Assembly (NCBI GenBank): GCA_963774955.1
Contig: CAVZGV010000001.1
Location: 1-46,236 of the forward strand
Origin: Candidatus Falkowbacteria bacterium
Lineage (GTDB): Bacteria; Patescibacteriota; Patescibacteriia; CAIXNZ01
Length of the DNA stretch: 46,236 nt
Direction: 5' to 3'
How positions within the stretch are numbered: position 1 is the stretch's first letter; each line of letters opens with the position of its first letter. Shown here one piece after another: positions 7,311-46,236 of the stretch. The notes beneath the pieces were generated by a model that was given only the letters and a program-made list of their open reading frames with translations, was not told the DNA's origin and ran no database searches. The position numbers and the translations under genes are program-made.

Positions 7311-8093
7311 CTAATTTATCATTTTGACCAAATTTTGCAAGAGCATGGCCACGGTCAGGGGACCGACGCCACCGGGAACAGGGGAACGCCAGCTAGCCTT
7401 GACATCACAGGACGGGTCAATGTCGCCAACAGTCTTACCTTCAATTTTGGAAATACCAACGTCAATTAAGACGGCATCTTTTTTGATCATGTCTGGTTTT
7501 ATATAATTAGGCTGACCGAGGGCGACGATAAGTATATCTGATTTTAGATTTTGGATTTTGGATTTTGGATTTAGGTTTTGAATATTTGAATCGGGAAGTA
7601 ATTTTATAAATGGTTTTGTGAATTCATCAGAATTTGAAAGTATTGTAACATTTTTATTTTTCAAATCAATTTTAGTTTCTTTTAGTAATTCCATAATGCC
7701 CAAGGCAGTCGGGGAAGTAAAAGGGGAATTGAGCTGAAAGCCGTCAATGTCTTTGCCGGAATCAATCGCGCTGATGATTTTATCTGTATCTAAGCCTTCA
7801 GGTAAAGGCAGTTGAACTAAAATGCCTTGAATGTCTGTATCTTTATTTAAAAATTTAATGGCTTCGATTATTTGTTCTTCTTTATATGTGGTTGGAAAGA
7901 GATAGGAACTAAAATTAATACCAGCTTCCAGACAGGCTTGCTCTTTAAGTTTAAGATAAAGTTTTGAGGCTTCGTTGTCACCAACTAAAATAGCAGCCAG
8001 ACCTGGTTGGTCGTTCATTGTAGCCACTTTGGCTTTGACTTGGGTAAGGATTTTATCGGCAAGGATTTTGCCGTTAATAAGTTGAGCTGGCAT
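7311..8093 (-). CDS. folD: FolD-like methylenetetrahydrofolate dehydrogenase/cyclohydrolase with a degenerate NADP-binding segment
   Basis: SKLYLKLKEQA, LVQLPLP, DIDGF and PVPGGVGPLTVAML are FolD motifs. Start set at MPAQLINGKILA (8093); the track's upstream extension looks non-coding. The G-R-S-x-x-V-G-x-P loop reads SNSDEFTKP, and the following strand is replaced by NIQNLNPKSKIQNLK. Confidence 0.8.
   Translation of the reverse strand: MPAQLINGKILADKILTQVKAKVATMNDQPGLAAILVGDNEASKLYLKLKEQACLEAGINFSSYLFPTTYKEEQIIEAIKFLNKDTDIQGILVQLPLPEGLDTDKIISAIDSGKDIDGFQLNSPFTSPTALGIMELLKETKIDLKNKNVTILSNSDEFTKPFIKLLPDSNIQNLNPKSKIQNLKSDILIVALGQPNYIKPDMIKKDAVLIDVGISKIEGKTVGDIDPSCDVKASWRSPVPGGVGPLTVAMLLQNLVKMIN
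7541..7582. repeat. 7-nt tandem array ATTTTGG (3 perfect plus 3 degenerate units) inside the folD coding sequence
   Basis: attttag attttgg attttgg attttgg atttagg ttttgaa. On the coding strand this encodes ...NLNPKSKIQNLK.... It shares the word AGATTTTGGAT with the 4654-4702 palindrome. Confidence 0.85.
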
Positions 8094-8233
8094 AATGTTA
8101 TGTAAGGATAAAAAACCCACTTTGTCTGTTACGATATTTAAGAGAAGTGCGAAGTATGTGGGTGTAATGGATTCCACGCTTCGCTCTGAATGACAAAGTG
8201 TGTTTTTATCGTCAAAAATTAGCGTTATTCGCG

Positions 8234-9478
8234 TTATTCTAAGCCCATATAGATGGGGAATTTACGGGTTAAACTTTTTACCAATATTTGAATTTTCTTT
8301 TTTATATTCGCATTATTCGGATTTTTCAGAATATCACAGATCGCCTGGCCGATCAGTTTCATCTCATCTTCTTTCATGCCACGGGTGGTTAAAGCCGCAG
8401 TCCCGAGTCTTAAGCCGGAAGGATCCTGGGCCGGTCTGACATCAAAAGGAATTAAATTTTTATTAACATAAATACCGACTGCTTGAAGTAAGGACTGGGC
8501 CTGGCCGCCGGTTAAGCTAATTGAGGTCATATCCAGTAAAATTAAATGAGTATCAGTGCCGCCGGAAATAAGTTTGATTTCATTATTAACAAAAATCAAA
8601 GCCAGAATTTTAGCGTTATTGATGACCTGCTGTTGATATTTTTTAAATGATGCCAAACTAGCCTCCTTGAAACAGACGGCTTTGGCGGCAATTATATTTT
8701 CCAAAGGTCCGCCCTGGATGCCAGGGAAAACTGCTTTATCAATCTGCTCGGCTAATTTTTTAGTACATAGAATCAAGCCGCCGCGGGGTCCGCGTAAAGT
8801 TTTATGTGTAGTAGAAGTAACAACGTCGGCAAAGGGGACCGGATCCGGATGCAATCCTGTCGCCACTAACCCGGCAAAATGAGCCATATCAACTAAAAGA
8901 TAAGCGCCAACTTCATTGGCGACCTGGCGGAAGCGGTCAAAATTAATTTGGCGCGGATAAGCCGAACCGCCGGCAATGATTAGTTTGGGTTTATGAATCT
9001 TGGCCAGCTTTGAAAGATCATCATAATTAATAAGTTGAGTCTCTTTATCAACCCCGTAAAAATAGACATCATAAAATTTACCGGTCTGATTAACTTTGGC
9101 GCCGTGGGATAAGTGCCCGCCTGAAGCCAGATCCATGGCTAGAATTTTATCGCCGGGATTTAATAGCGCTAAGTATACCGCCTGGTTGGCCTGACTGCCT
9201 GAATGCGGTTGGACATTGGCATGTTCGGCTCCGAAGAGTTTTTGGACCCGGGAAATAGCCAATGTTTCAATCTGATCAATAATTTCATTGCCTGAATAAT
9301 AACGCTTACGCGGATAACCTTCAGCGTATTTATTGCTCAAAGCAGTTCCCATAGCTTCCAAAACAGCGGGTGAGGCATAGTTTTCCGAGGCAATCATAGC
9401 CAAACCATCCTGTTGTCTTTTGGTTTCAGCCGTGATTAAATTGGCGATTTGCTTGTCTTGTTTGGTTACAAATTTCAT
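8234..9478 (-). CDS. glyA: Serine hydroxymethyltransferase
   Basis: Full-length match to the SHMT pattern (NKYAEGYPRKRYYSG, VQPHSGSQAN, TSTTHKTLRGPRGG). Confidence 0.95.
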   Translation of the reverse strand: MKFVTKQDKQIANLITAETKRQQDGLAMIASENYASPAVLEAMGTALSNKYAEGYPRKRYYSGNEIIDQIETLAISRVQKLFGAEHANVQPHSGSQANQAVYLALLNPGDKILAMDLASGGHLSHGAKVNQTGKFYDVYFYGVDKETQLINYDDLSKLAKIHKPKLIIAGGSAYPRQINFDRFRQVANEVGAYLLVDMAHFAGLVATGLHPDPVPFADVVTSTTHKTLRGPRGGLILCTKKLAEQIDKAVFPGIQGGPLENIIAAKAVCFKEASLASFKKYQQQVINNAKILALIFVNNEIKLISGGTDTHLILLDMTSISLTGGQAQSLLQAVGIYVNKNLIPFDVRPAQDPSGLRLGTAALTTRGMKEDEMKLIGQAICDILKNPNNANIKKKIQILVKSLTRKFPIYMGLE

Positions 9479-11629: not shown

Positions 11630-11639
11630 GGTTTTAGGT

Positions 11640-11675
11640 TACAAATTTAACAAATAAATACAAATTATTACAAAT
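11640..11675. repeat. Left word array (TACAAAT-type, 4 units at about 10-nt spacing) flanking the GxxExxY ORF
   Basis: Units start at 11640, 11649 (variant AACAAAT), 11659 and 11669. The array abuts the ATG at 11676. Confidence 0.8.
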
Positions 11676-12125
11676 ATGCCGACAGATAATAAAATAATTT
11701 ATAAAGAATTAAGCTTTGAAATCGTTGGTGTTCTTTTTGATGTATATAATGAATTAGGTTTTGGCTATCAGGAAAAATATTATGATGATGCAGTAGCCAA
11801 GGGTTTAGCGTTAAGACACCTGAATTTTCAAAGACAAGTTTCTTTTAATGTTATGTATAGGGGGAATATCATTGGTAAATCAAGGCTTGATTATGTGATT
11901 GAAAATAAAATTGTTTTAGAATTGAAAGTTGGAAAATATTTCACAAAACAGGATTTTAATCAGGTTAAAGGTTATTTACAAACAACAAATATGAAATTAG
12001 CTATTTTAGCGATTTTTACATTTAAGGGCGTGAGATTTATAAGAATTTTAAATGAAAATGATAAATTTCAAGAAGCAAAAGTAGATTTAGATCTAAATAA
12101 AATTAAGAAACTTTTTAAATACTAA
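11676..12125 (+). CDS. GxxExxY protein (PD-(D/E)XK nuclease superfamily)
   Basis: Signature GYQEKYY within ...VYNELGFGYQEKYYDDA.... The downstream D...ELK core (LDYVIENKIVLELKV) is typical of the family. Confidence 0.8.
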   Translation: MPTDNKIIYKELSFEIVGVLFDVYNELGFGYQEKYYDDAVAKGLALRHLNFQRQVSFNVMYRGNIIGKSRLDYVIENKIVLELKVGKYFTKQDFNQVKGYLQTTNMKLAILAIFTFKGVRFIRILNENDKFQEAKVDLDLNKIKKLFKY

Positions 12126-12162
12126 TTCGTAATTATTTCGTCACAATATTTGTATATTTGTA
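12125..12162. repeat. Right word array (ATT(C/T)GTA-type, inverted relative to the left arm)
   Basis: attcgta at 12125, atttcgt at 12135, atttgta at 12148 and 12156. These are the reverse complement of the left-arm word. Confidence 0.8.
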
Positions 12163-12171
12163 GCTTAGCTT

Positions 12172-16740: not shown

Positions 16741-18180
16741 ATGGACCTATCAAAACTTAAAAAAATCCACATTATCGGCATCGGCGGCATCGGCATTTCA
16801 GCCGTGGCCAAGCTTTTATTAACTCAGCATAAAATTGTGACTGGTTCAGATGTGCATGACTCCGATATTATTGAAACTCTAAAGAATTTTGGAGCGCAGA
16901 TTAATATTGGCGCCCATAATGCCAATAACGTGGCTAAAGACGTCGGGTTGGTTATTTATTCAGACGCGGTACCGGAAGATAATATTGAAAGGCAAGTAGC
17001 TAAACAGCAGAAGATTCCAAGCTTAAGCTATTTTGAATTTTTGGGCGAATACAGCCAGGATAAATATACCATTGCTATTTCCGGCTGTCACGGCAAGACC
17101 ACGACTACGGCTTTAACCGGTTTGATTTTGGATAATGCAAATTTTGACCCGACCGTAATTGTCGGTTCTAAGGTTAAGAATTGGGACGGAAATTTACGTG
17201 TCGGCGGTTCTGATTATTTTGTGGTTGAAGCTGATGAATATCGGGCGCATATGCTCCAATTAAATCCCAAAGCAATTATTCTGACCAATATTGAATTTGA
17301 CCATCCTGATTTTTATAGCGATTTGAATCAATATGTTGAGACGTTTCAGGAATTTATCAATAAGTTACCCCCGGCAGGATATTTCATTTATAATCTTGAC
17401 GATCAGATTTTACATGAACGCATTGAAAAACCCAATTGCCACGTGCTGACTTATGCTTTGGAAAACCAGGCTGCGGATCTAATTGTTAAAAATATTAAAA
17501 TCGATCATAACCGTCAAATTTTTAGACCTATATATAAAGGTCAGGAACTTCGTGATTTTAATCTGCAGGTCCCCGGCAAATTTAATATTTCCAATGCTTT
17601 AGGCGCAACTTTGCTGGCTTTGGAATTGGGCGTCAGTCCTGATGTTATCAAGGACACTTTGGCGCAGTACACCGGCGCCTGGCGCAGATTTGAAATTATC
17701 GGCAAAATGTCCGGTTTAACAGAAGACAAAAACGGCGCCTTAGTAATTTCTGATTATGCCCACCATCCGACTGAAGTAGCCAAGGTTATTCAGGCAACCA
17801 AGGAATTTTATCCTGACAAGCGATTACTCGTGGTTTTTCAGCCGCATCAGGTCCAAAGAACCAGAGAGCTTTTTGATGACTTTGTAAAAATCTTTGCCCA
17901 AAGTCCGGCTGAAGTTATTATTTTATCAGAAATATATGATGTGGCCGGCCGGGAAGAAAAAGATGTGACTAAAAGAGTTAGTGCTAATGATTTATTGGAT
18001 AAGATAATTTTAGTGGAAAGCAAGAAATTGGTGCAAGGTGTAGTCACTTCATTATATTATTATGCCAGTGACCTGATTGAAACCAAAGCCAAGATTTTAA
18101 GCGAAGTGCAGGCTGATGATGTGGTCCTGATTTTGGGGGCAGGGGATATTGACCAAGTTGCCAGGCAACTTGTTAAATAA
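16741..18180 (+). CDS. murC: UDP-N-acetylmuramate--L-alanine ligase
   Basis: IHIIGIGGIGISAVA, ISGCHGKTTTTA and DYAHHP motifs; Mur ligase length. Confidence 0.93.
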   Translation: MDLSKLKKIHIIGIGGIGISAVAKLLLTQHKIVTGSDVHDSDIIETLKNFGAQINIGAHNANNVAKDVGLVIYSDAVPEDNIERQVAKQQKIPSLSYFEFLGEYSQDKYTIAISGCHGKTTTTALTGLILDNANFDPTVIVGSKVKNWDGNLRVGGSDYFVVEADEYRAHMLQLNPKAIILTNIEFDHPDFYSDLNQYVETFQEFINKLPPAGYFIYNLDDQILHERIEKPNCHVLTYALENQAADLIVKNIKIDHNRQIFRPIYKGQELRDFNLQVPGKFNISNALGATLLALELGVSPDVIKDTLAQYTGAWRRFEIIGKMSGLTEDKNGALVISDYAHHPTEVAKVIQATKEFYPDKRLLVVFQPHQVQRTRELFDDFVKIFAQSPAEVIILSEIYDVAGREEKDVTKRVSANDLLDKIILVESKKLVQGVVTSLYYYASDLIETKAKILSEVQADDVVLILGAGDIDQVARQLVK

Positions 18181-18301
18181 CAAATAGCCATATTTAAATA
18201 TCAAATAAATCTTAAGTATCAGATTACAAACACTTTAGGATATTGAGATTTGGAGTTTGAAACTTGTTTGATTATTGGTACTTGGTTATTGGTAATTAAT
18301 C
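18181..18301. repeat. AT-rich word-repeat insert between the murC stop and a relic murC 3' end
   Basis: The right end ...gattattggtacttggttattggtaattaatcac resembles the right end of the 22412-22488 element (...gattggtagcaaattagtggattagtaattatcac). Confidence 0.6.
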
Positions 18302-18343
18302 ACAGGGGATATTGATAGAGTGGCGAGAGAACTGGTTAAATAA
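18302..18343 (+). pseudogene. Relic duplicate of the murC 3' end (TGDIDRVARELVK*)
   Basis: 33 of 42 nt are identical to 18139-18180 (AGDIDQVARQLVK*), including the stop. Five of the nine differences are synonymous. Confidence 0.8.
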
Positions 18344-18366
18344 TTAAATGTTAATAATCAAAAAAT

Positions 18367-18867
18367 ATGGCCATAAAATCGGCTTTTAAAAAAGTTCGCG
18401 ATATACCTTACAGAATTCCGGTTGTTTTGGGTGAAAAAGATGATTGTTGCAGCGGTAAAAACAAGGAGCTTAAAGATTTATTAAATAAACAGGGCTTGGA
18501 AGTTCGCTACCGGGTTTGCGGTTTTTTATGGAGTTCCCTTGATTTACCCAAAAAAGTGTCAAAAATTCCTCATGAGGATTACAGTACTCATTTATATCTG
18601 GAAGCTTTAATCAATAAGAAGTGGGTTATTATTGACGCAACTTGGGATTCTGGCCTTAAATCTATTTTCCAGATTAATAAATGGGACGGCAAATCAAATA
18701 CGCAAATAGCAGTTAAGCCAATCGAGATTTTTTCTCCTCAGAAAAGTGCTGACATTATGAATAGCGAGAATTATGAAGAAATGAAACATGATCGTAAAGT
18801 AAACGGGAAATTTTATACAGCCTTAAATAAATGGCTTGAAGAAGTTAGACGAAAAAGTAAAATATAA
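18367..18867 (+). CDS. Transglutaminase-like (papain-fold Cys-His-Asp) domain protein
   Basis: CCSGKNKELKDLLNKQGLEVRY ... HLYLEALINKKWVIIDATWD fits the transglutaminase-core C...H...D spacing. Confidence 0.6.
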   Translation: MAIKSAFKKVRDIPYRIPVVLGEKDDCCSGKNKELKDLLNKQGLEVRYRVCGFLWSSLDLPKKVSKIPHEDYSTHLYLEALINKKWVIIDATWDSGLKSIFQINKWDGKSNTQIAVKPIEIFSPQKSADIMNSENYEEMKHDRKVNGKFYTALNKWLEEVRRKSKI

Positions 18868-18883
18868 TTAAAACGAAAAAATT

Positions 18884-19255
18884 ATGTCAGAAAAATTAGA
18901 AGGCAATCCTTCGCCTCAAGAAAGGAAACCTCTAGAATATCTTTGGACCAGTGAACAACTATTAGCACCGGAAGTCGGTGCGGTTCAGCTGGGTGAATTA
19001 GAAATAGGGAAATACCAGGAATTGCGGTCCAAAATGATTAAAGAAGCAGAAAGACGAGGGATAAAAAATCCGCTCCTGGTTGTAGATTTGATCTTTAAAG
19101 AAAGTAAGGTCTCAGAGTTTGGATCCAAAGGCCAGCCTTATCCGATAACAGAGGCCGAATGGGAAGCTTTTGTTAATGATATTCCTGAATTTAACGGTGA
19201 CAAAATTCCCAAGGTTTACATGGTTGACGGTGAAAAATATACAGCGCCGATATAA
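18884..19255 (+). CDS. Hypothetical protein (123 aa)
   Basis: ORF 17 nt downstream of the previous gene. No motif recognised. Confidence 0.5.
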   Translation: MSEKLEGNPSPQERKPLEYLWTSEQLLAPEVGAVQLGELEIGKYQELRSKMIKEAERRGIKNPLLVVDLIFKESKVSEFGSKGQPYPITEAEWEAFVNDIPEFNGDKIPKVYMVDGEKYTAPI

Positions 19256-19290
19256 ATTTTAACGTTATAATTAATTATTTAATTTTTAAG

Positions 19291-19794
19291 ATGAAAAAAA
19301 TATTTCTAATCGCATTTGCGGCTTTATTGTTAGGCGGGTGTAACGTGCCAGCCGGGCAAAATCCTGCAAATAGCAATATCAATTCGCCGGCTACCAATGG
19401 AGCGCCGACAGTATCCAGTAATAATAAGCTGGATTTAAGTAATCAAAACTTATCCAAAGTGCCTGATCATGTTTTTAACATGACTAATCTGGAAGAACTG
19501 AATATCAGTAACAACAAAATTACTGGTGCAATCCAATCGCAAATCAATCAACTGAAAAATCTTAAAGTTTTAAATGCCGGCAATAACCAGATGACCGGAG
19601 TGCCGGCTGAAGTCGGACAGCTTTCAAATTTAGAGGTATTGGATTTATCTAATAACCAGTTAACCGGATTGCCTAACGAGCTTGGCAATTTGAAAAATTT
19701 AAAGGCATTTAATATTTCAGGGAACAATTATTCTACGCAGGATTTGAATGGAATTATACAGAATTTGCCGGCCAGCGTGAATATAATTAAATAA
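19291..19794 (+). CDS. Leucine-rich-repeat lipoprotein
   Basis: Signal peptide with lipobox LLGGC. About five LRR units (LxxLxLSNNxLTGxP). Confidence 0.8.
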   Translation: MKKIFLIAFAALLLGGCNVPAGQNPANSNINSPATNGAPTVSSNNKLDLSNQNLSKVPDHVFNMTNLEELNISNNKITGAIQSQINQLKNLKVLNAGNNQMTGVPAEVGQLSNLEVLDLSNNQLTGLPNELGNLKNLKAFNISGNNYSTQDLNGIIQNLPASVNIIK

Positions 19795-19822
19795 AAAAAC
19801 CGCCAAGGCAAGGCCTTGGCGG
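19793..19822. terminator. Hairpin between convergent genes; the T run is on the minus strand only
   Basis: 9-bp stem CCGCCAAGG/CCTTGGCGG, preceded by A7 on the plus strand. Confidence 0.65.
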
Positions 19823-19850
19823 AAGTAGTTAGTCTGCTTAGTCCTGGTCG

Positions 19851-20024
19851 TTACTTCTTTTTGTAGAAGATACTGATGAATACGTAAGGACTCCCAGGTC
19901 CGGAGGAAGACTGTAACACTCGTGTGATTTCGATATTTCCAGAGCTCTGGAGCCAGTCGTTGATATCTTTTTCCAGAGGAGCTGGGTTAGAATCACCTCG
20001 ACTAAAAATTTTTACTTGTTCCAT
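19851..20024 (-). CDS. Small protein, possibly Cse60-like (57 aa)
   Basis: Start set at MEQVKIF after GGAGGG. The pattern VKIF...LEKDINDWL...IEI...ISIFY resembles the about 60-aa Cse60 family from memory. Confidence 0.4.
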   Translation of the reverse strand: MEQVKIFSRGDSNPAPLEKDINDWLQSSGNIEITRVLQSSSGPGSPYVFISIFYKKK

Positions 20025-20094
20025 CCTTGAACCCTCCAATTTTTTTGAAAATGAATGCTTTAATATACTATTTCGGTGAGATCAGATTGCGGTT

Positions 20095-20358
20095 TTAGCC
20101 CTTGACGTAGTCGATGATGTTGACGACGATCGAGATGATGAATAGCAGGCCGGCCAAGCTGGACAAGGCACTCGCGACGACCATCGGCGCAACGCCTTTG
20201 AAGAAGGATTTGAATGATCCTTCGATGTCCATTTCGATCCCATTTGACATCATGCCTTTCATCCCTTTCATCCTGCGGATCTGGTTGTAGAAGGCATAGC
20301 CGCCGAAACCGACCATCAGGATCAGCCATAGCCACCAAGTCGTTCCAATAAACGCCAT
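20095..20358 (-). CDS. Small membrane protein (87 aa, 2 TM segments)
   Basis: Start set at MAFIGTTWW after AGGAGGAG. Two hydrophobic helices. Visibly GC-richer than its surroundings. Confidence 0.55.
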   Translation of the reverse strand: MAFIGTTWWLWLILMVGFGGYAFYNQIRRMKGMKGMMSNGIEMDIEGSFKSFFKGVAPMVVASALSSLAGLLFIISIVVNIIDYVKG

Positions 20359-20428
20359 TTTTTTCTCCTCCTTGTTTCCTTTTTTCAAAAATTTTGACGA
20401 TTTTGCCATCCTATTTGGGTAACATTTT

Positions 20429-20457
20429 ATATTAACATATTTTAGAATTTTTGTCAA
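20429..20457 (-). promoter_or_regulatory. Sigma70-type promoter TTGACA-N17-TAATAT
   Basis: Minus strand reads TTGACAaaaattctaaaatatgtTAATAT. Confidence 0.6.
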
Positions 20458-20464
20458 TAGTTAA

Positions 20465-20797
20465 ATGAAAACAACAGGCTTGAATATAAAAAGAGATAAA
20501 TATAAATCCAGCCGCGGAGGCTATTCGCGCCTCTTTGATATTTGTTGCCGCCAGTGCGGCAATTTTATTTTAGTGTACCAAAAAGACGGGCCAGGCAATC
20601 TGCATCGCCTGTATCTGGACAGGATCCTGGAGCCCGCTGAACTAGTAGGCTTGCAGTATCATAGTCTAAAAGATATTGATGTGTTAAAATGTAAAAAATG
20701 CCAAGCCCTGCTGGCCTCAGCCTATCTTTATCCCAAAGAAAAGCGTCCGGCTTTCAGACTGTTTCAAAACGCGATTATTAAACAATTAAAGAAATAG
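20465..20797 (+). CDS. Hypothetical zinc-ribbon protein (110 aa)
   Basis: CRQCG ... CKKCQ, two CxxC pairs. Confidence 0.5.
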   Translation: MKTTGLNIKRDKYKSSRGGYSRLFDICCRQCGNFILVYQKDGPGNLHRLYLDRILEPAELVGLQYHSLKDIDVLKCKKCQALLASAYLYPKEKRPAFRLFQNAIIKQLKK

Positions 20798-20802
20798 TAG
20801 AA

Positions 20803-21429
20803 ATGGAGAAAAAATTTGCAAACATAGATAAACAGAACGAATTTAAAGTGGATACTTCACGTATATCACCTGATATTAATGTGGAGGAATTTTTAAAATC
20901 ATTAAAAGAACTTCAGGTGCCGTGTCCCTGGGGTGATTTAAGTATAGGTGAGGGTATGGAGGAAGCCTTGCCCGGTATCCCAGACTCCAAGTTAATTCCA
21001 CGCATACCTTTGGCCTTATCTTTGGGTTGCGGACAATTTCCCGACATAAACGCTTATCGTTCCATTGTCAGGGCAGATGAATTTGGCAAAATAGTATATA
21101 CTGATATAAAGTATCCGCAAATTGTAACTGCCGATGATGATTATATCAGTTTGGATTTAACCAAGCCTAAATCAATAAATCTCTTCGGTTTTAAAGTCCA
21201 GGCGATAATGAGTATCAGCGTTTTTACGTATGATGGTCATGGCGTGGAATTTTTGGATAAGCAAAATGAAATGGCTGCCGCCCAAGCTTTGAATGAAATG
21301 CTGATGCCAGGAGGCATAATAGCCTCTGATAGCCTCGGCAGTTCCAGATTTGAACAAATATTTATAAAAAAATTCGGTTACAAACAAATCAGGAATGCCA
21401 ATTCAATAATTTTACAAAAACCGTTTTAA
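20803..21429 (+). CDS. Hypothetical protein with a possible Rossmann-type methyltransferase fold
   Basis: LSLGCGQFPD (motif I-like), VYTDI, ISLDL, LNEMLMPGGIIA. These are weak matches. Confidence 0.4.
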   Translation: MEKKFANIDKQNEFKVDTSRISPDINVEEFLKSLKELQVPCPWGDLSIGEGMEEALPGIPDSKLIPRIPLALSLGCGQFPDINAYRSIVRADEFGKIVYTDIKYPQIVTADDDYISLDLTKPKSINLFGFKVQAIMSISVFTYDGHGVEFLDKQNEMAAAQALNEMLMPGGIIASDSLGSSRFEQIFIKKFGYKQIRNANSIILQKPF

Positions 21430-21442
21430 GGTTTTTTGCATT

Positions 21443-22408
21443 ATGACTAAACAATTAGAACAATTGGAGATACTCTTAGGCAAACCAGTCCAGACTGACG
21501 TGCCTTTAGCTAAATACACAACTTTTAAAATCGGCGGGCCAGCTAAGTATTTTTTTATTGCTAATGATAATGAGGATCTGGTGCGGGCCATAACCTTTGC
21601 CAAGAAATTAAAAATTCCGGCCTATGTTTTGGGAGGGGGCAGTAATGTTTTAATTTCTGATAATGGCTTTGACGGCTTAGTAATAGTAAATAAAGCCAAG
21701 GATATAATTATAAAAAAAGACCATAAAGTAGTAGCTGACGCCGGTGTTAACCTGATGGAACTAGTCAATAAAACTGTCGCTGAAGGTTTGAGTGGTTTAG
21801 AATGGGCGGCAGGCATCCCCGGTTCTGTCGGCGGGGCTGTGCGCGGCAATGCCGGTGCTTATCGCGGGGAAATAGCTGATAATTATATTGGCGCAGAAGT
21901 TATGCGCGGGGGCAAACAATTTATTTTAAAAAAGGAACAATGTAAATTCGGTTACCGCGATTCTATTTTTAAACATAATAAGGATTTAATCATAACCGCG
22001 GAATTTCAGCTGGCCAAAGGGGACAAGGCTAAAAGCCAGGCTCAGATTAAAGAGATTCTGGAACAGCGCCAGACAAAACAGCCTTTACAATATCCCTCAG
22101 CCGGCAGTATTTTTACCAATATACTAATTAATGATGAAAATAAGGATGTGGTGGCTAAGCTGGGTAATTTGCCGGCCGAGTATTTAGAGTATAAAAAAGT
22201 ACCGGCTGCCTGGTTAATAGAACAGTCTGATTTAAAAGGAAAGACGATTGGCGGTGCTCAGGTTTCTGACAAGCATGCAAATTTTATTGTAAATACGGGT
22301 AAGGCAACGGCCAATGATGTAATCCAGCTGATAAGTTATATTAAAATGAAAATTAGAAATACTTATAGCCTTGAACTGATGGAGGAAATTGAATACGTTG
22401 GATTTTGA
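21443..22408 (+). CDS. murB: UDP-N-acetylenolpyruvoylglucosamine reductase
   Basis: TFKIGGPAKYF, LGGGSNVL, GIPGSVGGAVRGNAGAY, YRDSIFK, SAGSIF. Confidence 0.93.
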   Translation: MTKQLEQLEILLGKPVQTDVPLAKYTTFKIGGPAKYFFIANDNEDLVRAITFAKKLKIPAYVLGGGSNVLISDNGFDGLVIVNKAKDIIIKKDHKVVADAGVNLMELVNKTVAEGLSGLEWAAGIPGSVGGAVRGNAGAYRGEIADNYIGAEVMRGGKQFILKKEQCKFGYRDSIFKHNKDLIITAEFQLAKGDKAKSQAQIKEILEQRQTKQPLQYPSAGSIFTNILINDENKDVVAKLGNLPAEYLEYKKVPAAWLIEQSDLKGKTIGGAQVSDKHANFIVNTGKATANDVIQLISYIKMKIRNTYSLELMEEIEYVGF

Positions 22409-24845: not shown

Positions 24846-25130
24846 ATGAAGCTATCAAAAGCAGAAGTCGAAAAAATTGCCAAGCTTTCCAGGCTTGAAT
24901 TAACCGAGTCAGAAAAGGATAAATTTGCTGACCAAATGTCGGCTGTTTTAGATTATGTCGGCAAACTGGAAAAGGTTAATACTGATAATGTGGAAATGAC
25001 TGCGCAAGTTACCGGGCTGGAAAATGTGTATAGAGAAGATAAGGCTGAGCAGTGTGATTATCAGGAGGATTTGGTTAAACAAGCCGCAGAACACGAGGAT
25101 AATCTGATTAAGACTAAGTCTGTGTTCTAA
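24846..25130 (+). CDS. gatC: Glu/Asp-tRNA amidotransferase subunit C
   Basis: MKLSKAEVEKIAKLSRLELTESEKDKF...LDYV..L..V is the GatC pattern. The ATG at 24813 in the ORF track lies inside the promoter. Confidence 0.88.
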   Translation: MKLSKAEVEKIAKLSRLELTESEKDKFADQMSAVLDYVGKLEKVNTDNVEMTAQVTGLENVYREDKAEQCDYQEDLVKQAAEHEDNLIKTKSVF

Positions 25131-25180
25131 GGTTGTATGAAGTTCTATTGGGTTGTATTAGGTTATATAAAGTTGCAAGT
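25131..25180 (+). repeat. Left array: 5 units of a 10-nt word (ggttgtatga / agttctattg / ggttgtatta / ggttatataa / agttgcaagt)
   Basis: Starts at the nucleotide after the gatC stop, with an exact 10-nt phase. Confidence 0.85.
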
Positions 25181-25189
25181 TTAATAAAT

Positions 25190-25720
25190 ATGAAAATAGA
25201 AACAAACATGTACCAGGCTCCTTACGAAAAATTAATTGTATATAAACAAATTTGTGAATTGCGAAAGCTTATATATAAATATACTGTGCCATTTGCCAGG
25301 TCTGAACCACGTCGTGCATCGCAAATGAGGGATGCTTCCAGATCCGCAAAACAAAATTTTAAAGAAGGTTATCAAAGAGGGTCAATACGAATTTTTATTA
25401 ATTCTTGCAAAATAAGCTATGGGTCGTTGGAAGAGTTGATAGGCGATATAGATGATTGTAATGAGGATGGATTATTCAGCCTAGAAATCTACAATTTACT
25501 GAATGATTTAGCTAAGAAAACCCATTATTTACTAAATAATTATATCCAATCTTTATATAAAATAGAAAAAGAGGGAACTTGGAAAGTTATTCACCCCAAA
25601 AGCAACCTAATAAAACTTCATAAACCATCATATAACCTCATAAAACCACATGGACTTAAACCAACTAACAATCAAACAAGCCACTCAGATGCTAAACAAG
25701 AAAGAGATTTCCAGTACTGA
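25190..25720 (+). CDS. Four-helix-bundle protein (23S rRNA intervening-sequence protein family)
   Basis: YKQICELRKLIYKYT..F...EPRRASQMRDASRSAKQNFKEGY.RGS...FINSCKISYGSLEEL is the family pattern. The C-terminal about 40 aa is read-through of the right array and overlaps gatA by 71 nt, so the true end is uncertain. Confidence 0.75.
   Translation: MKIETNMYQAPYEKLIVYKQICELRKLIYKYTVPFARSEPRRASQMRDASRSAKQNFKEGYQRGSIRIFINSCKISYGSLEELIGDIDDCNEDGLFSLEIYNLLNDLAKKTHYLLNNYIQSLYKIEKEGTWKVIHPKSNLIKLHKPSYNLIKPHGLKPTNNQTSHSDAKQERDFQY
25601..25650 (+). repeat. Right array: about 5 units of the reverse-complement 10-nt word (taaaacttca / taaaccatca / tataacctca / taaaaccaca)
   Basis: The reverse complement (tgaagtttta, tgatggttta, tgaggttata...) matches the left-array consensus TATGANGTTNTA. 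The array decays into the first gatA codons. Confidence 0.85.
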
Positions 25721-43232: not shown

Positions 43233-45374
43233 ATGCTATCACCATCTCAAATTTTAAAAGATAAATTCGGTTATGAATCGTTTAGATTTAACCAGGAAGA
43301 AATTATAAATACAATTCTGCAGAGGCAGGATGTTTTTGTTTTAATGCCGACCGGCGGCGGTAAATCTATTTGTTATCAAATTCCGGCGTTAATATTACCG
43401 GGACTGACAGTTGTTATTTCGCCTTTAATATCGTTGATGAAAGATCAGGTGGATGCCCTGAGGGTAAATGGAATTAATGCCTCTTATTTAAATTCTTCAC
43501 TTTCAGATGAAGAATCTTTCGCTGTCTATGAACAACTTGAGCAGGGAAGTCTTAAACTTCTTTATGTAGCGCCTGAACGGTTATTTAATAACAACGGTCA
43601 ATTTATTAATTTTTTAAAAAGTTTAAACGTGACTTTATTTGCCATTGACGAAGCTCATTGTATTTCGCATTGGGGGCATGATTTTCGGCCAGAATATCGG
43701 ATGCTTTCATCTCTGAAAAATGATTTTCCCGAAGTCCCGATTATTGCTTTAACAGCTACTGCTGACCAGCTTACCCGCGAGGATATTTTAGATAAATTAA
43801 AATTAAATATAGATAAAATTTTTATATCCAGCTTTAACCGTCCCAATATCCATTACTTTGTGGAACCAAAGCGGGGTATGTATGATCATCTGTTGGATTA
43901 TTTGGCCTTGCACCGTGATGATTCTGGTATTATCTATGTTTTATCCCGCAATTCCACTGAGACTTTAGCTGATAAACTCAAGCGTAACGGATTTTTAGCC
44001 CAAGCTTATCACGCCGGCATGAGTAACGATGACCGTAATGAATGTCAGAATTTATTTGCCAAAGATGAAATTAAAATAATTGTAGCCACCATTGCTTTTG
44101 GTATGGGTATAAATAAATCAAATGTTCGTTTTGTGATTCATGCTGATCTGCCGAAAAATATTGAAAGTTATTATCAGGAGACAGGACGGGCAGGCAGAGA
44201 TGGCCTCAGAAGCGATGCGATTTTATATTTTAGCGGTGGCGATGTTATAAAACTTAAAAATTTCGCCATGGTGGCTGGAAATCCGGAACAATCTCGGATC
44301 ATGCTGAGAAAACTGTCACAAATGGCGGCACTTTGCGAGGGGCATGAATGTCGTCGCAAAGCCATACTTAATTATTTTGGCGAACAAGCTCCTGATCAAT
44401 GTGCTAGTTGCGATATCTGTCTGAGTACCCGTGAAAAATATGAGGCTACAGTCATTGCGCAAAAAGCCCTCTCAGCCGTGGCTGAATTGGGCAGTCGTTT
44501 TGGACTTACCTACGTTGTGGATTTTTTACGCGGTTCAAAATCAGCAAAAATAAAAGACCATCATAAAAATTTCAAATCTTACGGTAGTGGCGATGATATT
44601 ACTAAAACAGACTGGTTTTGCTATTTACGTGATTTAATTTCCCTTGGTTATCTCAAACAAATCGGTGCTGAGTATCCGATTCTTAGTCTGACAGAAAAAA
44701 GCTCCTTAGTACTTAAGGGTAATGAACCGGTTTATTTTTTCAAAACGATTTCTAAAAAAGAAACCGCCTTGGGGGAAATGCCCTATGAAAAAGAATTATT
44801 GGCTGAACTTAAACAAGTGCGTAATAATTGGGCACGGCAAGAAGATGTTCCTGCCTACATTATTTTTTCAGACGCTACTTTACTGGAACTGGCAACTTAC
44901 TTACCGCAAACTGAAACAGAGATTAGAAAGATTTCCGGGTTTGGCGATGTCAAGCTGGCAAAATACGGCAAGCCGTTTCTGAATGTGGTTGTTACTTATT
45001 GTAATCAACATTCCTTAAGTTCCAAAATTTCCGAAAAAGTTCCCAAGCGTGAAAAAAAAGTGCCACGTGAATCTGATTCTGTTACTAAGGCGACTTCATA
45101 CGACATGTTTAAAGAGGGCAAGACGATTTCTGAAATTGCCTCAATCCGCAAGTTATCACTTACAACCATTGAAAACCATCTGGCCTTTTACATTTTGGAA
45201 GGCAAATTAAAAGTACATGACCTGGTCCCACTGAACAAAATTTCCAAAATTACCGCAGCGATTGAAAAACATGGCCCGGAATTATTAAATCCTTTGAAAG
45301 AAGCGCTGGGTGAAGATGTCAGTTATGGTGAAATCAAAGCGGTAATTAATCACCTGAAAAGCGTTCAGGTTTGA
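43233..45374 (+). CDS. recQ: ATP-dependent DNA helicase RecQ with HRDC and a C-terminal HTH extension
   Basis: LMPTGGGKSICYQIPAL, DEAHCISHWGHDFRPEY, TATA, QETGRAGRDG, and a Zn motif C...C..C..C. Confidence 0.93.
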   Translation: MLSPSQILKDKFGYESFRFNQEEIINTILQRQDVFVLMPTGGGKSICYQIPALILPGLTVVISPLISLMKDQVDALRVNGINASYLNSSLSDEESFAVYEQLEQGSLKLLYVAPERLFNNNGQFINFLKSLNVTLFAIDEAHCISHWGHDFRPEYRMLSSLKNDFPEVPIIALTATADQLTREDILDKLKLNIDKIFISSFNRPNIHYFVEPKRGMYDHLLDYLALHRDDSGIIYVLSRNSTETLADKLKRNGFLAQAYHAGMSNDDRNECQNLFAKDEIKIIVATIAFGMGINKSNVRFVIHADLPKNIESYYQETGRAGRDGLRSDAILYFSGGDVIKLKNFAMVAGNPEQSRIMLRKLSQMAALCEGHECRRKAILNYFGEQAPDQCASCDICLSTREKYEATVIAQKALSAVAELGSRFGLTYVVDFLRGSKSAKIKDHHKNFKSYGSGDDITKTDWFCYLRDLISLGYLKQIGAEYPILSLTEKSSLVLKGNEPVYFFKTISKKETALGEMPYEKELLAELKQVRNNWARQEDVPAYIIFSDATLLELATYLPQTETEIRKISGFGDVKLAKYGKPFLNVVVTYCNQHSLSSKISEKVPKREKKVPRESDSVTKATSYDMFKEGKTISEIASIRKLSLTTIENHLAFYILEGKLKVHDLVPLNKISKITAAIEKHGPELLNPLKEALGEDVSYGEIKAVINHLKSVQV

Positions 45375-45402: not shown

Positions 45403-46236
45403 TTGGAACAAGAGTAAGATAAAAATAACTAATAATTAACTCTTGTTCTATGATCGCTTTATTAAAACAAATACCTTCGGAAACAAAAATTAAGAAAGAA
45501 TTAAGGAAAGTACTTTTCGGCAAGAATATGTTTTGCCCATTCTGCCATTCAAGGAAAGTATTTAGGTCAGAAAAGCGATATCGTTGCAGAAGGTGCAGGA
45601 AACCTTTCAATTTGTTATCAGCAACTTGGCTTAGTAACATGAAATTATCCCTGCGGACATTTTGGGCCTTGCTTTGGTGCTGGACTCAACAAATTCCCGT
45701 TTTGCAGAGTTCAAAATTGTGCCACATGAGCGAACCAACGGTTTATCACTGGTTTAGGGAATTCAGGGTGCATTTGCCCCAATTTGAGCCTATTTTACAA
45801 GGTACGATACAAATGGATGAAGCATATTTCAAAAGGTTATCGCTGCTATTGGCAAAACAAGTTGGCACTAAAAAGTTAGCTTATCAAATTATATTTAAAA
45901 ACTCTGTAAACAAAACTGAAACTACTCAATTCCTATTTCAGCATGTACAACCTAAAAGTAGATTGCAAACTGACGGCTCTAGCATTTACAAGAATATTAA
46001 TCAGTGGTGGCAAGTAAAGCACAAAAGGGATATCCATAAAAAATGGGAATTCAGTTTGACTTCAGAAATCGAAGGCATGTTTGGAAATCTTCGTACTTTT
46101 ATCCGTCGGATGTATCATCATACGACCCCGGAATATCTTCCGGAATATGTGAGTGAATTTTGCATCAGATTTTCCTCACCTGAAATCTTCGATTCTCCGC
46201 TAACTTACCTTAAGAACTCTATTACTCTTGTTCCAA
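45403..46236 (+). mobile_element. IS1595-family insertion sequence; 15-bp perfect terminal inverted repeats; the right end coincides with the window end
   Basis: IRL TTGGAACAAGAGTAA at 45403-45417. IRR TTACTCTTGTTCCAA at 46222-46236. Confidence 0.8.
45450..46236 (+). CDS. IS1595/ISXO2-like DDE transposase; open to the end of the window and absent from the ORF track
   Basis: MIALLKQIPSE...CPFCHSRKVFRSEKRYRCRRCRKPF (Zn ribbon)...IQMDEAYF...TDGSSIYKNI...MFGNLRTFIRRMYHH. There is no stop before nt 46236. Confidence 0.8.
   Translation, partial: MIALLKQIPSETKIKKELRKVLFGKNMFCPFCHSRKVFRSEKRYRCRRCRKPFNLLSATWLSNMKLSLRTFWALLWCWTQQIPVLQSSKLCHMSEPTVYHWFREFRVHLPQFEPILQGTIQMDEAYFKRLSLLLAKQVGTKKLAYQIIFKNSVNKTETTQFLFQHVQPKSRLQTDGSSIYKNINQWWQVKHKRDIHKKWEFSLTSEIEGMFGNLRTFIRRMYHHTTPEYLPEYVSEFCIRFSSPEIFDSPLTYLKNSITLVP

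Follow-up and report, generated by a model that had tools for sequence, protein, structure and literature searches.

Copies of the murC 3′ terminus recur at module edges behind an intact murC in related Patescibacteria

The 42 bases at positions 18302–18343 (forward strand) of a 46,236-nucleotide stretch of DNA from Candidatus Falkowbacteria bacterium (the window) are a genuine non-coding leftover of the 3′ terminus of murC, lying 121 bases past the real murC stop. Comparison with related genomes indicates that this layout recurs, in strict orientation and only at murC. On balance, we consider it probable that it results from repeated recombination at the murC end, used as an att-like site: arriving DNA would bring a replacement gene end, and the former one would be displaced. 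To our knowledge, the Candidate Phyla Radiation (Patescibacteria) combines tiny genomes with few recognised mobile elements and no genetic tools, and we know of little that explains how these bacteria acquire accessory and defence genes.

Results

A displaced murC terminus follows the intact gene

The murC gene (UDP-N-acetylmuramate–L-alanine ligase; 16741–18180, forward strand) is intact, encoding 479 aa with all three Mur ligase Pfam domains and 86% identity to a Parcubacteria MurC. Its live end at 18139–18180 (GCAGGGGATATTGACCAAGTTGCCAGGCAACTTGTTAAATAA; peptide AGDIDQVARQLVK, then stop) is matched at 33 of 42 nucleotides by the relic (ACAGGGGATATTGATAGAGTGGCGAGAGAACTGGTTAAATAA), which has no start codon (an in-frame TAA lies 9 nt upstream), reads TGDIDRVARELVK up to its own TAA at 18341–18343, and includes a 30-nt conserved core starting at 18311 (ATTGATAGAGTGGCGAGAGAACTGGTTAAA). 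The first-pass annotation had noted this resemblance from the sequence alone, and we find, as it did, that five of the nine differing bases are synonymous. The similarity also stands apart: the runner-up forward-strand match to the live 42-mer in the window reaches 25/42, and an independent repeat search recovered the same pair (41 nt, 80%, spacing 163, direct). Scored with a position-weight matrix of the core, the relic reaches 41 bits, whereas the live end in the window scores about 21.

Alignment of the live end with the relic contains a 13-nt exact direct repeat, CAGGGGATATTGA, with its left copy at 18140–18152 and its right copy at 18303–18315 (both forward strand). The left copy is a switch point from own-clade sequence to a foreign terminus: upstream of it MurC follows the clade of loci L001 and L003, and downstream it is of the L005/L006/L009 type. 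In the MurC tree the window groups with L001, L003 and L008 (support 100/98), and L005, L006 and L009 form a separate clade, a placement with which the window's live terminus is phylogenetically incongruent. This "Q-type" terminus (18153–18180, forward strand; ..DQVARQLVK, then stop) matches that of L005 at 28 of 30 nt and shares the identical 23-nt GACCAAGTTGCCAGGCAACTTGT with L006 and L009, despite a gene body only 73% identical to those of the three loci. It holds a perfect 19-nt palindrome (CAAGTTGCC-A-GGCAACTTG, 18154–18172), is predicted to form a hairpin as RNA (−9 to −13 kcal/mol), and shows about 9 differences from the 30-nt common core.

The relic peptide, in turn, equals the MurC C-terminus of the closest relatives (86% and 82% identity), ending ...GAGDIDRVARELVK, and orthologous relics are present in L003, L008, L167 and L001. 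A comparison of murC 3′ regions among relatives, proposed beforehand, thus came out in favour of the relic (DRVARELVK) as the own-clade version, with the live end DQVARQLVK matching a different MurC clade and not the closest relatives. By sequence affinity, then, the present terminus is a foreign allele and the relic the own-clade allele; the foreign stretch of ~28 nt could be a short conversion patch acquired in a separate event. The earlier proposal that an insertion brought its own gene end is upheld insofar as the relic is displaced and the live terminus comes from elsewhere, but the insertion is not recent in this genome, since the block of palindrome and relic is common to six loci (the window, L003, L008, L167, L086 and L087).

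The palindrome, H, is the AT-rich, cargo-less 121-nt segment between the two ends (18181–18301, forward strand), which is CA-rich in its left arm, GT-rich in its right arm and predicted to fold into one long imperfect hairpin (−22.8 kcal/mol, z = −1.98). It contains no ORF and has no Rfam match. Homologues occupy the same position in L003, L008, L086, L087, L006 and L167, where the 17-pair outer stem is conserved, yet with little covariation. Past the relic, a spacer at 18339–18365 (forward strand) resembles a left-arm remnant, its 27 nt being 74% complementary to the right arm of H (18264–18290) in the repeat search. The idea that the right end of H carries a motif shared with other palindromes did not survive: GGTAATTAATCAC has 18 matches (≤3 mismatches) against 20.4 expected, which is no enrichment, and the second exact copy, at 45341, falls within coding sequence.

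Beyond the spacer lies a variable accessory island (18367–21429) between murC and murB, an interval whose content differs in every relative. In the window it comprises a first gene of 166 aa (18367–18867, forward strand; no Pfam family), a 123-aa ORF, an LRR lipoprotein and other ORFs. Its conserved far flank is murB (21443–22408, forward strand; a 321-aa ORF), whose equivalents in relatives carry FAD_binding_4 and MurB_C; upstream of murC are Elp3-like, Trm9-like and unknown ORFs. The relic and the 166-aa gene form a block common to the window and L001, in which 894–1455 of L001 aligns to +123..+675 of the window at 81.5% and the alignment begins exactly at the left edge of the relic.

The layout recurs at related murC loci

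We compared a related set of 31 Patescibacteria murC loci (MurC at least 72% identical) with more distant loci. Across the related loci, the core position-weight matrix identified 52 copies, namely the 31 live ends and 21 further copies, all of them downstream of murC and on its strand (0 inverted, 0 upstream); the same matrix gave 4 matches in 2.8 Mb of distant loci. At 124 more distant murC loci, no relic of the gene's own tail scored above 23/36. Each relic-bearing related bacterium (uncultured) holds one to three relics, L005, L010 and L101 have none, and murC is intact at every related locus except for apparent frameshifts in L167. Among 336 ORF ends from the window and the related loci, a downstream copy of at least 25/36 was found for murC only, barring one unrelated match of 27/36; upstream controls reached a maximum of 26/36, once. 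The first-pass annotation had suggested a search for further gene-end relics; none was seen at any other gene end in about 370 kb. The architecture was seen in NCBI MAGs, JGI metagenomes, ENA and Logan, that is, in independent assemblies.

A succession of live end, ORF(s), relic, ORF and relic is found in L001, L086, L090, L092, L093 and L088, and the modules between murC and murB range from the cargo-less palindrome through single genes to a restriction-modification (R-M) unit. Cargo examples include a MazG-like protein, a GNAT acetyltransferase, the R-M unit and a HATPase+DUF4325 protein. Module homology breaks at both relic edges: the block common to the window and L001 starts at the relic's left edge, homology between L086 and L087 ends at the relic TAA, and six loci with homologous H and relic continue into six unrelated downstream sequences. 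A 256-aa ORF stands directly behind the live end in L104 and behind a relic in L087. The arrangement in L003 resembles a pair of tandem end-plus-H units, and L086 holds a 127-nt former murC 3′ region with H and relic 2.6 kb downstream of the live gene, behind the R-M cassette. The cassette ORF of L093 is an orphan. The closest MazG-like homologue is again in a murC island (L167), and another lies at a non-murC locus that has no core (L168). Logan contigs from four runs confirmed a single arrangement of the L001 array, with no alternative joints, excised circles or empty sites among them.

Relic cores are conserved with no codon periodicity

The consensus of the final 30 nt of murC is ATTGATAAGGTGGCGAGGGAATTGGTTTAA. 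Between genomes, relics are 84% identical to one another and live ends 71%, and relics resemble each other more than their own live ends. Per-position conservation of relics is 80–99%, with third codon positions no lower than the others, and in live ends conservation drops at third positions as usual; relics are also better conserved than the adjacent H element. The alignments therefore indicate a relic core conserved without codon periodicity and better than the translated live ends, although not all relics are maintained, since those of L006, L093 (+637) and L096 are clearly decaying.

Relic lengths are mostly 28–31 or 35–43 nt, with others of 12, 51, 85 and 106–127 nt; the 28–31 nt class may consist of decayed 41-nt copies. 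Such a spread is more in keeping with homology-driven or illegitimate joining than with crossover at a fixed point, and the implied crossover position varies, from the left edge in the window to at or after the stop codon in L001. The conserved core is unstructured (fold z about 0), with neither tyrosine-recombinase-type dyad symmetry nor an attC-like fold.

Searches for an enzyme, a donor or another identity

A crude motif screen of the 31 loci (≤6 kb flank) and the 46-kb window found no recombinase, nor did scans of individual cassette ORFs and about 30 window genes. Recombinases were likewise absent among the 25 commonest of the 98 Pfam families matched by 139 island ORFs; because inspection covered these 25, a single-copy integrase could escape. 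No mobility genes were seen in the inserts; R and M genes occur together in the L086 cassette only, and the window insert has no gene. Viral-contig scans with K-type core patterns or the Q-type terminus found no phage or plasmid attP, and we found no report of murC as an attachment site in the literature searched.

Several other identities were considered and rejected. A dif site lies at the replication terminus and spans 28 bp, composed of a XerC arm, a 6-bp spacer and a XerD arm; this identity, and with it Xer/dif elements such as IMEX and pdif modules, was set aside because GC skew stays positive throughout the window and never switches, and the core is without dyad symmetry. A known or structured RNA is not indicated, there being no Rfam match and an unstructured relic core, and a consensus scan calls neither a promoter nor a terminator at the relic or at the live end.

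Discussion

Under recombination at the murC terminus, the last 30–40 nt of murC in this Patescibacteria clade would act as a reusable attachment or junction sequence. DNA with its own copy of the murC end would recombine with the resident terminus, and, because that DNA carries a terminus copy, the essential gene would always be re-completed; the earlier terminus would be left downstream as a relic. Repeats of this process could build an array of murC, module, relic, module and relic up to murB, with the cargo-less 121-nt palindrome H as the module in the window. The murC end would be a reusable docking point in that each leftover marks the edge of an inserted module. The 30-nt core may be kept as a recombination site for a candidate enzyme encoded elsewhere in the genome, and we infer a site-directed recombination analogous to attL/attR accretion or to an integron array. 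A more specific form of this idea, which we regard as possible but put forward tentatively, is that an undescribed, integron-like cassette platform of Patescibacteria uses the final 30 nt of murC for its recombination. Single accessory and defence genes would be stacked behind the essential gene by a recombinase or nuclease whose own gene lies elsewhere, each cassette closed by a sequence-conserved copy of the murC terminus, and the C-terminal MurC allele could be exchanged through deletions between copies.

The main competitor dispenses with a dedicated site and enzyme, and we judge it somewhat unlikely. Acquired (for example, transformed) DNA with a murC 3′ fragment would integrate by homology-driven or illegitimate insertion with long target duplication, using RecA-type recombination either as a Campbell-like single crossover or with one long and one short homologous arm; whatever length of murC was carried would be duplicated, and relics would be passive scars, available later as short, portable arms of homology. 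Duplication lengths of 12 to 127 nt, the variation of implied crossover positions by locus, the shifted copy in L091 (−12..+36 around the stop codon), the failure of the motif screen and the commonest Pfam families to yield a recombinase at any locus, and the presence among the cassettes of one complete R-M unit, a classic cargo for such insertions, all speak for it. However, passive scars are expected to decay neutrally, and most relics outdo live ends and neighbouring non-coding DNA in conservation, with no periodicity; furthermore, 30–40 nt at 75–90% identity make a poor RecA substrate, and neither the restriction to a single gene end nor the clustering of lengths near 30 and 40 nt is explained. 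A homing-type nuclease encoded elsewhere (e.g. one of the small PD-(D/E)XK or GIY-YIG enzymes that these genomes commonly encode) that cuts the common murC terminus seems to us improbable. In that scheme repair would copy the donor's resistant terminus together with cargo, and one-sided annealing at the relic would produce the duplication; the Q-type terminus could be a cleavage-immune allele, because about 9 of its 30 positions differ from the common core, and PDDEXK_3 genes occur in the window (11676–12125) and in the islands of four relatives. No nuclease gene, however, adjoins any relic, and both a free-standing homing endonuclease and the homing with co-conversion suggested by the first-pass annotation run against the window itself, where the insert at 18181–18301 has no ORF and the flank is duplicated, not replaced as is normal in homing.

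The remaining alternatives fare worse. It is quite improbable that the relic core persists chiefly because it acts in cis on expression of the next module (as a promoter-like TTGATA-N18-TTTAAT, or as an insulator), with its position at module edges reflecting selection for expression and not recombination. The core does have TTGATA followed 18 nt on by TTTAAT or TTAAAT, short relics start 1–2 nt before TTGATA, and the relic and its downstream gene move together in the window and L001. The second hexamer, however, is without the key A at position 2, for which reason a sigma-70 rule calls no promoter; the 18-nt spacer equals the hexamers in conservation, something that a promoter does not need; and neither the origin from the murC end nor the homology breaks at both edges are accounted for. 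Local tandem duplication of the murC end and its downstream spacer with divergence in place would fit the direct orientation of copies 163 nt apart and the tandem appearance of L003. We disfavour it as very improbable: the live copy shares 28 of 30 nt with the other clade's terminus despite a gene body at 73%, and the relic matches its own clade; relics of different genomes are closer to each other than to their own live ends; and the cargo flanked by relics is unrelated. Finally, a chimeric join of two strains' murC ends during assembly is hardly conceivable. Logan contigs do break at or near the murC end, so the assembly graph branches there, but the same architecture emerges from other sites and pipelines (L003 from JGI is identical to L004 from Logan; also L008, L087 and L167), the exact word common to the join is only 13 nt, too short for a k-mer misjoin, and a Logan contig with identical MurC continues for 137 nt after the stop, covering H and entering the relic.

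The murC locus is a defined, recurrent entry point for foreign genes beside an essential conserved gene, and a natural example of such a gene staying intact while serving as a docking site. Its short conserved junction sequence is searchable genome-wide and testable biochemically. A dedicated enzyme, if one exists, would represent a new small site-specific integration system and make the murC terminus a candidate landing pad for genetic manipulation; if there is none, the arrays would be an unusually clear natural record of the reuse of one site by long-target-duplication insertion.

Comparison with known systems

A close precedent is the tandem accretion, through attL/attR repeats, of elements integrated at housekeeping-gene 3′ ends, such as ICESt1/ICESt3 and their decayed CIME and microCIME derivatives at fda or tRNA-Lys in streptococci (PMC7563491 and, cited in it, Bellanger et al. 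2011). Similarly, the murC loci show direct repeats that come from the target gene's 3′ end and lie on its strand (21 downstream copies, each of them forward), a gene that stays intact (the L167 frameshifts apart) with a replacement end apparently supplied by incoming DNA, several elements stacked in tandem with internal repeat copies, and many units without a recombination gene; the 163-bp unit of the window resembles a microCIME. In contrast to ICE/CIME accretion, no integrase was seen at the 31 murC loci. The units there are very small, 0.12 kb to a few kb and usually with a single gene; repeat length varies from 12 to 127 nt; and the bacteria belong to an ultra-small Patescibacteria lineage for which no conjugative partner is known.

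Insertion with long target duplication (Nobusato et al. 2000; Furuta, Abe and Kobayashi 2010, PMC2853133) is recognised in PMC2853133 by inserts with no mobility genes and with R and M genes both inside. The murC arrays share with it inserts in which no mobility genes were seen, repeats of >30 bp of which empty genomes have one copy (the 256-aa ORF of L104 versus L087; relic-free L005, L010 and L101), the frequent overlap of repeats with a gene 3′ end, variable repeat lengths and R-M among the cargo (L086). They differ in that one target is reused clade-wide to build arrays, most cargo is not R-M, and the duplicate is conserved between genomes beyond neutral expectation.

Integron arrays provide a further parallel, being compact series of one-gene cassettes that mostly share one orientation, with a short recurring element closing each, into which new units seem to enter beside a fixed anchor. 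The murC loci nonetheless differ from integrons: no intI lies nearby and no recombinase adjoins murC at any locus; attC is a structure-conserved imperfect palindrome that folds into a single-strand hairpin, whereas the murC core is sequence-conserved, unstructured and coding-derived, and the anchor is the end of an essential gene. In the orphan-module arrays of rhs and cdiA, an incoming 3′ end likewise replaces the functional one and the old end persists as a non-expressed remnant. Those arrays, however, displace a variable toxin domain with its immunity gene and use an internal conserved core as the repeat, whereas the murC arrays would displace the conserved terminus itself and leave the protein essentially unchanged. 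The best reading of the murC arrays, taken against these systems, is as a variation on the known phenomena of gene-3′-end integration and "long target duplication".

A second murC terminus downstream of the gene

The window derives from a Patescibacteria/CPR genome of low GC content (38%), and its murC (16741–18180), for which a Parcubacteria MurC is the nearest relative in the databases (86% identity), carries all three Mur-ligase Pfam domains within the open reading frame. The last 42 nt of the gene (live terminus, 18139–18180) encode AGDIDQVARQLVK, and a second copy, termed the relic (18302–18343), encodes TGDIDRVARELVK; 33/42 bases are identical, and five of the nine mismatches leave the amino acid unchanged. 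The first-pass annotation had described this displaced copy after the stop codon, and the duplication is genuine and far above chance: across the window, the runner-up same-strand match to this 42-mer reaches 25/42, and a repeat finder independently recovered the pair 18139–18180/18302–18343. The relic has no start codon and has an in-frame TAA 9 nt upstream. Between the copies lies H, a 121-nt AT-rich spacer (18181–18301) that forms a single long imperfect hairpin (−22.8 kcal/mol, z = −1.98). A right-end motif previously proposed to be common to H and other palindromes was not enriched, and this reading was rejected. The right-end 13-mer of H, GGTAATTAATCAC, has an exact second copy (45341–45353) in the 3′ end of a 713-aa ORF, where it encodes ..AVINH..; this is probably a chance match.

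The relic is native and the live end foreign

Judged from protein endings, phylogeny, DNA matches and the position of a sequence switch, the relic is the terminus of the window's own clade and the live terminus is foreign. The MurC proteins nearest to the window's, at 86% and 82% identity, both terminate in ...GAGDIDRVARELVK, the relic peptide, and the live-type ending ...DIDQVARQLV(K) is found in proteins just 74–76% identical to the window MurC. A maximum-likelihood MurC tree built without the last 14 residues grouped the window with relatives L001, L003 and L008 (support 100/98) and placed L005, L006 and L009, which have the live-type ending, in a separate group. Gene bodies of the window and these latter three loci are only 73% identical; the window terminus, however, matches L005 at 28/30 nt and shares an identical 23-nt stretch, GACCAAGTTGCCAGGCAACTTGT, with L006 and L009. 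Own-clade sequence gives way to foreign sequence at a 13-nt exact repeat, CAGGGGATATTGA (18140–18152 and 18303–18315). Which allele matches the clade was a check put forward in the first-pass annotation; it is the relic, and the annotation's core proposal, that an insertion brought its own gene end and displaced the old one, is backed by the foreign live end and native relic.

Relics recur at murC across the clade

Loci whose MurC reaches 72% identity or more, 31 in all (NCBI MAGs, JGI and ENA metagenomes, Logan assemblies), were each scanned for repeats of their murC tail, and relics were found in many. A position-weight matrix constructed from relics gave 52 matches in these loci, comprising 31 live ends and 21 additional copies; all 21 lie beyond the 3′ end of murC and on its strand, and the scan returned no reverse-strand or upstream copies. 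The matrix matched four times in 2.8 Mb of distant loci, and none of 124 murC loci from more distant bacteria held own-tail copies above the noise level (>23/36). In a search for other gene-end relics covering the 46-kb window and ~325 kb of related loci, downstream end copies occurred at murC only, among 336 ORF ends (close loci and window). Gene-end relics are specific to murC and to the window's clade. Contigs mapped onto L001 agree with the array order and contain no population variants of it. Short-read unitig contigs of L166 and Logan ERR12035938 end 25 nt and 137 nt past the murC stop, consistent with assembly-graph branching at a shared terminus or relic in mixed populations.

murC-end copies bound small modules

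The copies bound small modules. L001 reads murC, MazG-like ORF, relic, GNAT acetyltransferase, relic, two ORFs, relic; L086 reads murC, 128-aa ORF, N4/N6 DNA methyltransferase, MutH/Sau3AI-like nuclease, relic, followed by an ORF, a 127-nt former murC 3′ region, H and a relic. Layouts in L088, L090, L092 and L093 resemble these, and the first module is an H-family palindrome alone in the window, L003, L006, L008, L087, L111 and L167. Cargo, where identified, is accessory or defence-like. The first three L086 ORFs form a complete restriction-modification cassette (7456–9320), exactly between the live murC end and a relic with the K-type core described below (~9332). The interval between murC and murB (21443–22408, forward strand) is otherwise hypervariable, its simplest form being murC, short spacer, zinc-finger gene, murB (L005, L010, L101). 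In L008 (~7545–7600, ggccttcgccaaccgaagttgg...) and L167 (~2490–2560, CTCGTCTCGGCTTC...GCGAGACGAAGC), H is broken by GC-rich mini-hairpins that look like small nested insertions.

Inter-locus homology stops at relic edges. The window and L001 share a block (81.5% over 562 nt) that starts exactly at the relic left edge, to the left of which lies H in the window and the GNAT gene in L001; L086 and L087 have 171 nt in common, made up of H and relic, with homology stopping at the relic TAA. Six loci with homologous H and relic continue into six unrelated sequences, and a 256-aa gene occurs directly after the live murC end (L104), after a relic (L087) or after other ORFs (L089). Measured against murC, relics end at the stop codon or at most ~20 nt beyond, and start 28–31 nt (six copies) or 35–43 nt (nine copies) before it, with outliers at 12, 51, 85 and 106–127 nt; the sequence of several 30-nt relics suggests 41-nt copies that lost their G-run through mutation to A/T. 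In L091 the duplicated target is shifted (+436 to +484 past the murC stop): after a 127-aa cassette ORF, the repeat holds ~12 nt of Q-type murC end (GCAACTTGCGTAA) and ~36 nt of post-stop spacer (TGATCAATTATTAATAATC...).

Further features lie elsewhere. A PDDEXK_3 gene (11676–12125) between Elp3-like and Trm9-like genes is flanked by TACAAAT/ATTTGTA word arrays (11630–12170); a 43-nt inverted repeat pair (25122–25164, 25604–25646) encloses an ORF in the gap before a 485-aa ORF at 25650; and an ORF running past the window end (45450–46236, start MIALLKQIPSETKIKKELRKVLFGKNMFCPFCHSRKVFRSEKRYRCRRCRKPF...) resembles the N-terminal zinc-ribbon of an IS1595-family transposase. L005 has a 23S_rRNA_IVP gene between gatC and gatA.

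The relic core is conserved without a coding signature

A 30-nt consensus, ATTGATAAGGTGGCGAGGGAATTGGTTTAA (K-type core), fits most relics and is also the live end in L092, L094–L097, L103 and L104. Relics from different genomes share 84% identity, versus 71% for live ends of the same genomes, and relics match their own live ends at 73%. Per-position conservation of the core is 80–99% and lacks codon periodicity: on a 0–9 scale, third positions score ~8.7 and first and second positions ~8.4, whereas translated live ends dip at third positions (~6.1 vs 8.6). The eight bases 5′ of the core (CAGGGGAT) are only ~60% conserved and farther flanks are at random level; orthologous relics are 76–95% conserved versus 47–83% for adjacent H. 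As RNA the core is unstructured, and it drew no Rfam match and no promoter or terminator call. Maintenance is not universal, since copies in L006, L093 (+637) and L096 are visibly decaying. Relics are either under constraint or drawn from a recent common source.

Within the last murC codons, the Q-type part of the window's live end (18153–18180) contains a perfect 19-nt palindrome, CAAGTTGCC-A-GGCAACTTG (18154–18172), which requires both the K/R-to-Q and E-to-Q substitutions. At MurC identities of 74–76%, L006 and L009 carry the same palindrome and L005 a version with one base changed. Folded as RNA, it gives a hairpin (−9 to −13 kcal/mol). It may act as a terminator-like hairpin or a protein-binding site, or may be an allele escaping a factor that acts on the K-type core.

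Mechanism and history

In the model that we propose, DNA bearing a copy of the gene's 3′ terminus would recombine with the resident terminus, re-completing murC and leaving one copy behind; repeated rounds would build an array of modules and relics. The static structure is as expected from such a process, and two versions of it fit. We favour site-directed recombination at the core, carried out by an enzyme whose gene lies elsewhere, a reading we hold with modest confidence, because conservation of the core exceeds coding and neutral expectation, a single gene end is used, polarity is strict and modules break at both relic edges. Against it stand variable duplication lengths, inconsistent implied crossover positions and a core without dyad symmetry. 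Nor was a recombinase seen in the individually scanned cassette ORFs, ~30 window genes, a crude motif screen or the 25 commonest of 98 Pfam families (139 island ORFs), although a single-copy integrase would escape the last survey. The other version, homology-driven or illegitimate insertion with long target duplication (PMC2853133), we regard as less likely.

Other candidates were rejected or are weak. Tandem duplication in place conflicts with the allele incongruence, and an assembly chimera conflicts with the finding of the same architecture in independent assemblies. Homing with co-conversion of the flank, entertained in the first-pass annotation, is weak on two counts: the insert holds no nuclease gene, and replacement would be predicted where duplication is seen. 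A dif/Xer site is excluded by flat GC skew across the window, and no phage attP was found in viral contigs.

The H-plus-relic unit is common to the window, L003, L008 and L167, and therefore predates their divergence. In L003, the sequence found after the live end of the window (CAAATAGCC...) instead lies behind a relic, which suggests that copy–copy recombination can lose units and so would make a live end out of a former relic. A later conversion patch of ~28 nt may account for the Q-type terminus. Together, the data support extending the single relic first noted to cassette arrays that recur across the clade at the murC terminus.

Site-directed recombination at murC would work in the manner of attL/attR accretion, known with its CIME/microCIME remnants from the 3′ ends of genes (PMC7563491), and would bear a loose resemblance to integrons. 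The murC arrays belong, as a variant, with known gene-3′-end integration or long-target-duplication phenomena.
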